Assembly: GCA_045046875.1 (NCBI GenBank)
Contig: JASFYY010000142.1
Location: 1-37,275, forward strand
Source of the DNA: Verrucomicrobiota bacterium
GTDB lineage: Bacteria > Verrucomicrobiota > Verrucomicrobiia > Verrucomicrobiales > DEV007
Direction: 5' to 3'
Length of the DNA stretch: 37,275 nt
Made by a program: the position numbers. Shown here in pieces: positions 6,001-9,000 of this stretch. Positions within the stretch are counted from its first letter, which is position 1. Each line of letters starts with the position of its first letter.

Positions 6001-9000
6001 GTATCAACTACGATGTAGGTTTTGTCCTTGGTCGGCATTTCGTTGGCCTGACCATCCCAGGCGATGATACGTTTTTCAAAACGGTTGACGACATCGATGA
6101 AGGGCGTTTTGAACTTCAGCCCGGCTGTGCTGATGGTTTTGCCGATAGGCTTGCCGAAGCGGGTGACAATGATTTGTTCGGTCATGTCCACGGTGTAACA
6201 GGAGAGCGAGAGCACAATGGCCGCAATCATAAAAATGATGAGAGCGAGGCAGGATGAGATTTGTGATGGTTTCATCTTAGTAAAATAAAGAGTTAGCGTT
6301 GAGGCTTGGATTTAGCGAGCTGCTTTTGGCAGGATGGGGGCGGTGGTTTGGGAATCAGAGCCTAGTTGCAGTAAGGGAAGGATTTGCTTGGCATCGCTGT
6401 CGATGATGATTTTACGACCCAGTTGCGGGATCACTACATTCATGGTTTCGAGGTAAAGGCGTTTCTGAGTGATGCCGGGGGCTTTTTTGTATTCAAGGAA
6501 GCGGGCGGTGAATTTGGCAGCGTCTCCTTCCGCCTCGTTGACTCTTTCGGTGGCGTAACCTTCGGCTTCGCTGATCTTGCGTTCCGCTTCGCCACTTGCT
6601 TTGGGCACTTCGCGGTTGTATTGGCCATTGGCGATGTTAATCAGGTTTTCGCGTTCTTGCTGGGCGTTATTGACTTCATTAAAAGAGGCTTGCACCGGTT
6701 CCGGGGGGTCGACGTTTTTCAATTGCACCTGGTCGATTTGTAGACCCATGGAGTATTCATCGACAAGTTCTTGAAGCTTGAGCAGTGACTGGGATTCGAT
6801 CTCCTGACGGCCAATGGTGATGACTTCATCGACGGTCCGATCACCCACCACTTCGCGCATGATGGCTTCCGAGGCATCACGCAGGATCTCGTCAGGATCT
6901 CTGACTTCGAAGAGGTATTTTTCCGGATCGCTGATGCGGTATTGCACCACCCACTCGACCAGGGCTGCGTTGAGATCTCCGGTGACCATGTGTTTTTCAT
7001 TGCCTTGCTCTCTTTGATCCGGAGAGTATTGACTGCGGTTGGTGGCTCCCCGGGTGCCAAAACCGAACTCTTGTTTCATCTGTCGAAGCACTGGCACGTG
7101 TATCACTTTATCGATGCCAAAGGGCAGTTTGCCATGCAAACCAGGAGTGGTGATCGTATGCAAGCGGCCAAAGCGGGTGACCACACCGGCTTCTTCGGCT
7201 TGCACGGTGTAAAATGCGGTGAACAGGCCGACGACGAGGATCAGCAAGGGCACCAGGACGGCGGGTAGCCACAGCGCTTGTTTGTCCAGTTTGGGCAGTT
7301 TGAGGTCGAAATCAATTTTTTGTGGAGAATGTTCACTCATGATGGGGGCAGAGTGCCGCTGTTCACCCTGCCTTGCAATAGCGGATTATCGAAATCGATG
7401 ATCTTCTTTGTATGGAGCTTTGAGAAAAAGCATTGACCCTTTTCAAAAGCGGTCTTTTAATACCAGCACTATGAAAATCCCTGCGTTGTTTTATTTGGCG
7501 GCTTTTGCGAGCCTGTTTGTATTGGCTGTGAATGGTGAGGCCCGAACCTGGACCCGGGCCAAGGACAAGAAGAAGATCGAAGCTGACTTTGTGAAAGCGG
7601 AAGGGGATAAGGTCACTATCAACATGAAGGGCAAGGACATGACTTTGGCGGTGAGTGTTTTTAGCAAGGAGGATCAGGAATTCATCGCGGCTCAAGGGAA
7701 AAAGGGAGCTGCCAAGGGCAAAGAATCCACGGCAGGATTGAAGGGGGATCCCAAAGTGATGCCAGAGGGGGCGACTTCGGTGGTATTAAGCGGAGCGCAT
7801 CTGTGCTGCTCCAAATGCCAGAAGAGAATTGAAAAAGCTGTTGAGCGTTATGATGATGTTAAACTGGATTTCGATAAGAGCGCTGGAACGGTAACCTTTA
7901 ACGGGGAGAGTGGACAAGCGGTGGAAGATGCCTTGTTCAAGGTGCATGAAGCGGGTTTTTACGGCATGACGGATCATGCGCGGTTGAAGATGAAAAAACC
8001 GGGTGGCAGCAAAAAGGAGGTTGAAGAACTCAGTGTGGTTGGCATGCATGTGTGCTGTGGAAAATGTGAAAAGGCGATCAAAGCAGCGCTGAAGACTGTG
8101 AAGGGGATTGACTCCCATACGATGGAGAAGGGTAAAAGCTCTTTTATCGTGAAAGGCAAGGTCTCTGCAGCGGAATTGAATAAGGCTCTGAATGGTGTGG
8201 GTTTGAATGCCCGGACGATCACTGTGCCTAAATAAGGGGAACTTTTTACAGGGCGCGACAGGGGCAGTTGGTGATAATTTGTTTTTCCTGCTGGATTTTT
8301 CAGCGCAGGGCATTAAAGGTATCGGCGTTATGATGATCGCATTAGGATTAGGTGTCGCTATAGGAATGTTGCTGCTCGGAGCAGTGTTGTTTTCTTATTT
8401 GCTCAAGGGCAGTTAAGGCGCGGGATTTTGCCAACAGGTTTTCAAGGGCTTTTGACAGCTCTTGGAAAAACTACTGGTGCTTTTTACCATTCAGGCTATC
8501 ATCTGACCCAACATGCCGATGAAAGGACGTATCATTATTAAATCGATCCTCATCGCTATTATTCAAGACTAAGTCAGTCTGGATGGTAGCGAACCGACAG
8601 GTCATGATTTGACCGCATGTGAAATTTTCGGCTCAAAATCGTCCATTCCGACGTAATATCCGCTATTGATATGAGTGAGCCAACAACTAAGCAAGTAAGC
8701 ATCTATGATACCACGCTGCGTGACGGTACGCAGGGGGAAGGCGTGTCTTTCAGTTCACTGGATAAACTTCGCATCGCAAAAAAACTCGATGAGTTCGGGG
8801 TGGATTATATCGAAGGCGGCTGGCCGGGTTCGAATCCGAAAGACGTTGAGTTTTTTCAAGAAGCCAGAAAACACCAGTGGCAGCACGCGCGCATTGCCGC
8901 TTTTGGCAGCACACGGCGTAAAAATGTGGCGGTGGAGGATGATCCGCAGGTGGCATTGTTGATCGAATCAGAGGCTCCGGTGGTGACCTATTTTGGCAAA

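Follow-up and report, generated by a model that had tools for sequence, protein, structure and literature searches.

The main finding of this study is that cimA in this Verrucomicrobiota bacterium is preceded by a mini-ORF that is Ile specific and conserved across a verrucomicrobial family, and by RNA in which two mutually exclusive helices with a common arm form the core of an attenuator. We consider it very probable that these elements constitute a ribosome-mediated isoleucine sensor placed before cimA. The whole explanation, in which this sensor would control cimA by occluding its start codon, includes an output step that is predicted throughout, and we judge its chances to be evenly balanced.

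The regulated gene in this proposal lies at positions 8671-10263 on the forward strand of the window (the complete 37,275-nt stretch of contig JASFYY010000142.1 that was analysed) and encodes a citramalate synthase of 530 residues, which scores 730 bits against TIGR00977 for a cut-off of 450. CimA heads an alternative, pyruvate-based route to isoleucine. Since the same genome also has a threonine-dehydratase-like gene (397.8 bits, for a cut-off of 411), cimA may not be its sole isoleucine route. No leader was found before ilvB or the ilvA-like gene of this genome.

An Ile-specific leader ORF conserved ahead of cimA

The leader ORF (8513-8572, forward strand; MPMKGRIIIKSILIAIIQD and a stop codon) has 19 codons, seven of them Ile, as described in the genome-wide survey's note and as seen again on re-reading the sequence. 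Its chance origin is excluded, and among the 56,941 ATG-initiated mini-ORFs of 10-32 codons in the whole genome it is the sole locus with seven Ile in a 12-residue window. The claim that the leader is kept within the genus also holds, with leader DNA present in four of the five other genomes; the fifth (G003) yielded no leader DNA and no CimA match at E<=1e-100. Over the 70 nt past the leader stop (8573-8642), identity to two other species of the genus is 90.0% and 88.6%, compared with 79.7% and 76.6% for the cimA coding sequence of the same two species (52.7% and 51.0% at third codon positions) and 44% and 38% for the upstream spacer, in line with the earlier observation that some 70 nt after the stop are better conserved than nearby coding sequence.

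The leader extends well beyond this genus, which supersedes the caveat in that note that conservation was seen in one genus only. Using as criterion a mini-ORF with at least four Ile in 12 residues that ends 50-300 nt before cimA, we found an Ile-rich mini-ORF in 79/105 genomes and 23/29 genera of the family, the reverse strand giving 12/105 and shuffled sequences 2.7%. A stricter criterion of at least five Ile gave 60/105, against 4/105 and 0.4%, respectively; because the family genomes are related, the shuffle controls exaggerate the significance of these counts. By the first criterion, the ORF is missing from 26/105 genomes, including all five of genus g6. The 79 leaders are rich in Ile specifically (32% of residues, and 43% of the last ten), while Leu accounts for 5% and Val for less than 2.3%. 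All three Ile codons are represented (ATT 261, ATC 159 and ATA 20), and the final Ile lies one or two residues ahead of the stop in 65/79 leaders. When 186 sources were searched with a covariance model of the leader, matches came only from members of this family. Outside it, Ile-rich mini-ORFs precede cimA at 4/22 planctomycete loci and 1/23 other verrucomicrobial loci in our own sample, and metagenomes scanned for a 24-nt sequence specific to the genus gave 0 matches. A check of sequencing runs listed no RNA run that contains the locus; four runs of one study contain part of the stretch in contigs.

How the leader ORF would be translated is suggested by what lies just upstream. A -10-like hexamer, TATCAT (8497-8502, forward strand), ends 10 nt ahead of the leader ATG, and 17 nt upstream of it a -35-like hexamer, CTGGTG (8474-8479, same strand), can be read from the sequence; other genera have in that place an A-rich tract plus a (C/T)TGGCG or TTGCG block. 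A strict sigma-70 scan returned no promoter at the leader. Across the family, 54/79 leaders have a TAnnnT hexamer whose last base lies 5-13 nt upstream of the ATG (mode 8-9), against 13% of shuffled sequences. This near-constant spacing of about 8-10 nt points to a leaderless or near-leaderless leader mRNA, from which the mini-ORF is probably translated. The genome as a whole shows no Shine-Dalgarno signal, with 242/2392 starts carrying such a site and 275 doing so in a control window.

Two exclusive helices sharing region 2

The RNA that begins within the leader ORF contains three segments, all on the forward strand, that pair in two alternative ways. Region 1 (8553-8570) consists of the last Ile codons and the codons that follow and is the 5' arm of hairpin 1:2, in which 8553/8555-8565 pairs with 8580-8590/8592 and 8567-8570 with 8576-8579. 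In this hairpin GCUAUUAUUCA (8555-8565) pairs with UGGAUGGUAGC (8580-8590), with the stop codon in the loop, so that the previously noted pairing of the last Ile codons with the segment after the stop was found again. Region 2 (8573-8597) is the common arm. Its second partner, region 3 (8628-8653), was absent from the earlier description of the locus. Helix 2:3 comprises 8580-8587/8638-8645, 8591-8592/8633-8634, 8594-8597/8628-8631 and 8573-8575/8650-8652. It encloses an inner hairpin, GGUCA/UGACC (8600-8614), that is predicted in every folding state and is replaced in other genera by a variable hairpin at the same position.

Both helices are supported by covariation on a 44-row covariance-model alignment of leaders (A5), which was not fitted to helix 1:2; the match of the covariance model in the window covers 8537-8656. 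Helix 2:3 is paired in 94.2% of cells, against 20-46% in slid controls, and 6/16 of its pairs show compensatory changes. Helix 1:2 is paired in 90.9% of cells, against 11-44%, with compensatory changes in 6/14 pairs; for each helix, the covariation score was reached by 0/500 shuffles. Columns 66-80, which correspond to region 2, are used by both structures. In addition, duplexes between cognate partners are more stable than those with partners from other genera, both for 1:2 (-18.7 vs -14.0 kcal/mol) and for 2:3 (-25.4 vs -20.6 kcal/mol), and in the sequences inspected, 2:3 replaced 1:2 in the predicted fold once the ORF was masked. Helices 1:2 and 2:3 are thus mutually exclusive and share region 2, which is the core of an attenuator. 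Simpler alignments gave less. RNAalifold returned zero pairs on a first MAFFT alignment of 24 leaders, and a 79-row MAFFT alignment gave weak pairing (62.1% and 50.4%) because region 3 was misaligned; it was superseded by the covariance-model alignment. The consensus fold reported in the genome-wide survey's note (44 pairs, -41.4 kcal/mol) was not reproduced, our own consensus for the genus having -47.0 kcal/mol. The attenuator logic proposed there is supported in its sensor half, by the Ile-specific conserved ORF, the exclusive helices and their compensatory changes.

The output step and its alternatives

In the mechanism that we propose, transcription would start at the leader ATG (8513) or a few bases ahead of it, and a ribosome would read the 19-codon ORF. 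With an ample supply of charged Ile-tRNA, the ribosome would get to the stop codon and leave, 1:2 would form, and region 3 would stay free and, in this genus, would pair with the start region of cimA through GGCUCA/UGAGCC and UCGU/AUG. Where Shine-Dalgarno sites are absent, as in this organism, such occlusion should lower cimA initiation, and the message, left untranslated, may then be terminated by Rho. Under a shortage of Ile-tRNA, the ribosome would stall on the Ile codons and cover region 1, so that 2:3 would form once region 3 is made, leaving the start region open and cimA expressed.

The predicted partner of free region 3, region 4 (8656-8681, forward strand), is the translation start region of cimA. 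Predicted 3:4 helices join GGCUCA (8630-8635) to UGAGCC (8676-8681) and also 8656-8660 to 8668-8672, and in the consensus fold of the genus UCGU of region 3 pairs with AUGA of the cimA start. The 3:4 duplex has a predicted energy of -14.2 kcal/mol, compared with -7.0 +/- 2.4 for shuffled partners, 1.6% of which are as good. In three species, 4.6, 9.9 and 7.4 bases of region 3 are expected to pair with the start region when the RNA is free, and at most one when the ORF is masked. The predicted pairing of free region 3 with the cimA start codon in this genus suggests translational control. Several results temper this prediction. First, the shift in predicted start-site accessibility in this genus is modest, from 0.42 in the free to 0.54 in the stalled state. 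Second, the 3:4 helix is without covariation support, since it is nearly invariant in the genus and species L009 breaks 2/6 of its outer pairs. Third, with realistic ribosome footprints (a stall at Ile12 or Ile16), the minimum-energy fold of the window stays off 2:3, and the near-equal energies of the 2:3 and 3:4 states (-26.8 and -27.2 kcal/mol) make the model dependent on co-transcriptional kinetics. Given the sensor, we put the chance that the output in this genus works by occluding the start codon at slightly below even. As an output common to the family, start-site accessibility was rejected, with no significant shift (0.557 vs 0.579, p=0.19), and pairing between region 3 and the start region is predicted for only 5/74 family leaders.

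The same sensor and 1:2/2:3 switch could lead instead to Rho-dependent termination of the tna type before or inside cimA, single-stranded region 3 and the spacer loading Rho, and 2:3 shortening the free tract and so preventing loading. We consider this reading rather unlikely. In its favour, most leaders have no intrinsic terminator, and terminators were rejected as a family-wide output, terminator-like sites occurring in 32/79 leaders compared with 99/395 shuffles (25%). The family spacer past region 2 contains 35% C and 19% G, with C exceeding G in 74/79 leaders, while comparison sequence upstream of the leader has 26% C and 27% G. The genome encodes Rho (528.6 bits, for a cut-off of 509), and a precedent has been proposed for the terminator-less actinobacterial cys leaders treated in Seliverstov et al. 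2005 (PMC1262725). However, the spacer of the window has only 58 nt and little excess of C (15 C, 10 G), and the C-rich tract lies mostly downstream of region 3, which would leave it single-stranded in both states. For this genus, the caution in the genome-wide survey's note that control could be translational or Rho dependent is borne out, since no U-run terminator follows: the interval from the leader to cimA contains no terminator-like site, and no hairpin in 8573-8682 is followed by a U-run.

A further reading dispenses with the ribosome as sensor. The RNA could be structured so as to bind a protein or ligand, or to confer stability, its helix reading as Ile codons by chance, or the ORF could encode a functional small hydrophobic peptide. 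Translation of the ORF is itself a prediction, regions 2 and 3 are better conserved than the peptide, and in a Streptomyces ilvB leader mutation of the candidate regulatory codons had no effect, according to the same study (PMC1262725). Several features nevertheless make this reading improbable in our estimation. Ile codons are enriched upstream of the helix too, for example at codons 7-9 in the window, and nucleotides vary while the start, the stop and the reading frame are kept. The rarity of Leu and Val argues against a merely hydrophobic peptide. The ATG is at a constant distance from the -10 element, and there is no match to an Rfam family, a cmscan of 8000-9000 against Rfam 15 at E<=10 having returned three chance-level matches of at most 17 bits each, far under the gathering score. 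The preferred reading, a ribosome-mediated isoleucine sensor, would have the ribosome both translate this ORF and stall on it.

Finally, intrinsic termination at a non-canonical terminator, with the same sensor and an output like that of the classical trp, leu and ilv attenuators, is very improbable here: some leaders of a sister genus (L030, L116, L121 and L145) form a 3:4 hairpin in which GAGUCGGG from region 3 pairs with CCCGACUC and CUUUUCC follows immediately ahead of the AUG, but the window offers nothing comparable to a U-run after a hairpin, and this absence is informative because the same genome uses canonical terminators elsewhere, the Leu-rich leader ORF before leuA (the paralogue of cimA) being followed by a canonical hairpin and then a U-run.

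Relation to known leader-peptide systems

Classical leader-peptide attenuators are those of enterobacteria, namely ilvL of ilvGMEDA, ivbL, leuL, thrL, trpL and hisL. To our knowledge, nearly all known cases of leader-peptide attenuation, a textbook mechanism, come from Proteobacteria, Actinobacteria and a few other groups and concern ilv, leu, trp, his and thr operons. The cimA leader resembles the classical systems in having a short ORF rich in codons for the regulated amino acid, placed in the first of the segments that form exclusive hairpins, and in having its stop codon next to region 2. It differs from them in its target, cimA, and in its sensor, which would respond to Ile alone rather than to Ile, Val and Leu together. 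It also differs in that the window has no 3:4 U-run terminator and the host no Shine-Dalgarno signal, in that the transcript probably begins with the leader ORF, and in that it matches no Rfam leader family. 

Another parallel comes from Actinobacteria, for which leader peptides without obvious terminators and a LEU element upstream of leuA are described in Seliverstov et al. 2005 (PMC1262725). There too, a run of codons in the ORF base-pairs with RNA farther downstream, no obvious terminator is present, and an output at the level of translation or through Rho is proposed. The two cases differ in phylum, gene and RNA fold: in the cimA leader it is an intermediate region 2 that the Ile codons pair with, and a third segment is predicted to contact the start codon. 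We found no description of a leader before cimA in the published literature, within a limited coverage of subscription journals.

We tentatively propose, as a possibility rather than a likelihood, that the leader represents a new cis-regulatory RNA family of Verrucomicrobiota in which a leaderless, Ile-only leader and a conserved 1:2/2:3 switch are joined to a non-conserved expression platform, the output of region 3 differing by genus (start occlusion, a terminator-like hairpin or possibly Rho). If true, this would be a modular attenuator of the citramalate route to isoleucine that works without a canonical terminator. The present case is a well-conserved, covariation-supported example of a probable leader-peptide sensor in Verrucomicrobiota and would give a clean model for coupling a stalling sensor to expression without a terminator or a Shine-Dalgarno site. 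It supplies a seed alignment for a new RNA family, and it suggests that annotation pipelines overlook such leaders in many uncultured lineages.

One further candidate concerns the sister genus. In many of its species, the repeat ACCCTGTTGA precedes cimA and was considered as a regulator site or as region 4. It was rejected as a genome-wide palindromic repeat of that genus, with 81 and 73 copies in two of its genomes (13 and 4 for a control pattern) compared with 9 in the present genome (5 for the control), and an exact inverted copy lies within about 35 nt at 11/20 of the sites inspected.

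An isoleucine leader conserved ahead of cimA

The central finding is that an Ile-specific leader-peptide switch on cimA, the gene for citramalate synthase in the pyruvate route to isoleucine, is real and conserved. The genome-wide survey's note had proposed an uncalled leader peptide of 19 codons, seven of them Ile, and this is confirmed: the ORF at 8513-8572 (+) encodes MPMKGRIIIKSILIAIIQD followed by a stop, and the gene downstream (8671-10263, +) scores 730 bits against TIGR00977, for which the cut-off is 450. Rfam 15 holds no family for the leader region, with three chance-level matches only (E<=10), and no Rfam leader model matches it. 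The 191-nt region folds at -51.2 kcal/mol (z = -2.84), with 2/200 shuffles equally good. Between the leader and a heavy-metal-binding-domain gene (7408-8235) lies a 69-codon ORF (8207-8416, +), which overlaps the end of that gene, has a hydrophobic C-terminal half and a terminator-like site (8370-8386) within its 3' part, and is without a match in NCBIfam. Elsewhere in the window, NCBIfam gives no match at E<=0.001 for a 794-codon ORF (11376-13760, +).

The whole genome that carries the window (G000) contains 56,941 ORFs that start with ATG and run for 10-32 codons; of these, the leader locus is alone in having seven Ile in 12 residues, the next-highest value, six, occurring in 11 more ORFs spread over nine other loci. 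A DNA similarity search saw the leader only within the genus, in four of five other genomes. CimA protein is present in 113 of 121 sampled genomes of the family, which belongs to Verrucomicrobiota, and upstream DNA was gathered for 105 of these 113 (30 + 75 loci), leaving out seven in which cimA is truncated at its 5' end by the edge of the contig; one more genome, G002, was treated apart and has the leader MQMSERIIIKSILIAIIQN. With a leader defined as an ORF of 10-32 codons ending 50-300 nt before cimA and holding at least four Ile in 12 residues, 79/105 family genomes (23/29 genera) have one, versus 12/105 on the reverse strand and 2.7% of mononucleotide shuffles; the corresponding values are 60/105, 4/105 and 0.4% for at least five Ile, and 38/105, 0/105 and 0.05% for at least six, the genomes in these counts and in the identities below being kin, so that the controls overstate independence. 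The survey's caveat that conservation had been shown for one genus only is thus superseded. By the same definition, the genomes that lack a leader include all five of genus g6, both of g5, g14 and g32, and 9 of 42 of g2.

The leaders share a loose motif of Arg, Ile-Ile and Ser, then an Ile-rich run near the stop. Ile makes up 32% of the residues of the 79 leaders (43% of the last ten), Leu 5% and Val <2.3%; all three Ile codons occur (ATT 261, ATC 159, ATA 20), and the last Ile lies 1-2 residues ahead of the stop in 65/79. The RNA beyond the stop is also conserved, as the survey had claimed for its first ~70 nt relative to coding sequence: these are 90.0% and 88.6% identical to those of two other species of the genus, versus 79.7% and 76.6% for cimA (third positions 52.7% and 51.0%) and 44% and 38% for the upstream spacer.

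Two predicted alternative folds of the leader RNA

In the predicted fold of the window, region 1 (8553-8570, +), which comprises the last Ile codons and the codons that follow, pairs with region 2, the segment after the stop, through helices 8555-8565/8580-8590 and 8567-8570/8576-8579, with the stop codon in the loop; this is the pairing that the survey had described. When the ORF is unavailable, region 2 is predicted to turn to region 3 (8628-8653, +), through 8580-8587/8638-8645, 8591-8592/8633-8634, 8594-8597/8628-8631 and 8573-8575/8650-8652, which enclose a small hairpin (8600-8614). Folding of further leaders from the family gave these two states again.

Two analyses bear on these helices. 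First, an alignment-free test on the 79 leaders set each region's own partner against one from another genus: binding is -18.7 versus -14.0 kcal/mol for 1:2 (region 1 with region 2) and -25.4 versus -20.6 kcal/mol for 2:3. Second, because pairs could not be counted reliably on MAFFT alignments of the full leader set, a covariance model was built from 26 well-aligned g2 leaders, with the 2:3 helix as its structure. A search of 100 family loci gave 44 matches at E<=0.002 (g2 34, g1 4, g18 3, g15 2, g36 1), and the window leader scores 21.3 bits; in 86 further sources, the only matches were other family members and the window site (8537-8656). Across the 44 sequences, 94.2% of cells are paired in helix 2:3, to which the alignment was fitted (slid controls 20-46%), and 90.9% in helix 1:2, to which it was not (slid controls 11-44%). 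Compensatory pairs number 6/16 and 6/14, respectively, and neither covariation score was matched by any of 500 shuffles. Since both helices occupy the same region 2 columns, they are mutually exclusive.

Transcript start and output on cimA

A TAnnnT hexamer ends 5-13 nt before the leader ATG (mode 8-9 nt) in 54/79 leaders versus 13% of shuffles, and with the leaders aligned on the ATG, a conserved A-rich tract and a TTGCG or CTGGCG block lie 17 nt further up. The window counterparts are -10-like TATCAT (8497-8502, +), 10 nt before the ATG, and promoter-like CTGGTG (8474-8479, +). From these sequences we infer that the leader ORF starts at, or a few bases from, the transcript 5' end. Such a position fits a genome without a Shine-Dalgarno signal: with G000 gene starts set roughly, at whichever ATG comes first in a long ORF, Shine-Dalgarno-like 4-mers at -18 to -4 precede 242/2392 starts (275 in the control window), and the last 10 nt before these starts are G-poor (17% G). 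In locus L153 and similar g2 leaders, region 3 reads GGGATCACCTCCTTA, probably akin to the 16S rRNA 3' end, and region 2 (GGGTGAT) would be akin to an extended Shine-Dalgarno sequence; this likeness may simply follow from the need to be complementary to ATC codons.

How the Ile-stalled ribosome would act on cimA is less firm. Given the sensor, occlusion of the cimA start by free region 3 is the preferred reading for the window genus, at slightly under even odds. GGCUCA (8630-8635) is predicted to pair with UGAGCC (8676-8681) at the start, and a consensus fold built on four different sequences of the genus pairs UCGU of region 3 with AUGA of the start. The duplex has -14.2 kcal/mol, versus -7.0 +/- 2.4 for shuffled partners, and in three species 4.6, 9.9 and 7.4 region 3 bases are expected to pair with the start region when region 3 is free, versus <=1 when the ORF is masked. 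Against occlusion, start accessibility in the genus shifts little (0.42 to 0.54), this 3:4 helix shows no covariation and is partly broken in one species, and family-wide accessibility does not change (0.557 vs 0.579, p=0.19), with region 3-start pairing in 5/74 leaders only. A further point against it is that, under realistic ribosome footprints, the minimum-energy fold of the window does not switch, and kinetics must therefore decide.

Second to start occlusion comes a Rho-dependent output, to which the presence of rho in G000 and the composition of the spacer after region 2 across the family (35% C, 19% G; C > G in 74/79 leaders) would be suited, although in the window itself this spacer shows hardly any such skew (15 C, 10 G). 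Intrinsic termination through a 3:4-type hairpin fails at the window leader, where simple scans found no terminator-like site between leader and cimA and folds no hairpin with a U-run, as the survey had noted, and such sites are not clearly enriched across the family (32/79 leaders vs 99/395 shuffles), a region 3-built hairpin followed by CUUUUCC just ahead of the AUG being seen in a g2 subset (L030, L116, L121, L145). This lack carries weight because the same genome uses a canonical terminator-like hairpin with a long U-run after the Leu-rich leader MRSTQHIPALKLKLLLLELGLAA (G000 C91:31895-31966, -, outside the window), which ends 133 nt before leuA (C91:30274-31761). The genome therefore has a Leu leader on leuA and an Ile leader on the paralogous cimA.

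Related leaders and nearby elements

The cimA leader has the same logic as classical leader-peptide attenuators and differs from them in lacking the terminator; the type of mechanism is known, the setting new. The closest parallels in the publications consulted are leaders of Actinobacteria that have no terminator, together with the leuA LEU element (PMC1262725); Corynebacterium leader peptides are also mentioned in PMC3890552. A literature search, beyond whose coverage most subscription journals lie, returned no paper that describes any leader upstream of cimA, and the switch is apparently undescribed so far. In other lineages sampled, Ile-rich mini-ORFs precede cimA at 4/22 planctomycete, 1/23 other verrucomicrobial and 0/17 actinobacterial loci. 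Short ORFs ~50-120 nt upstream of cimA in Solirubrobacterales and related MAGs (L069, L085, L088, L091, L092, L097, L103, L105) share a ...G-R-I-T-x-A-A-A-like tail with 1-3 Ile only and may be a different, Ile/Thr/Ala-type leader in Actinobacteria.

A threonine-dehydratase-like gene of G000 (C22:91438-92850, -), before which no leader ORF was found, scores 397.8 bits against TIGR01124, just below the cut-off of 411.3, so that 2-oxobutyrate may be made by both routes in this organism. In many g2 species, a 10-base motif, ACCCTGTTGA, occurs in 1-3 copies ~22 nt apart between region 3 and cimA (e.g., L138, L146, L159, L166). It is not enriched in G000 (9 vs 5 for a control pattern) and is a genome-wide repeat in two g2 genomes, G091 and G120 (81 and 73 copies; control pattern 13 and 4), where it often has an inverted copy at a distance of 12-15 nt, much as in palindromic elements of the REP type.
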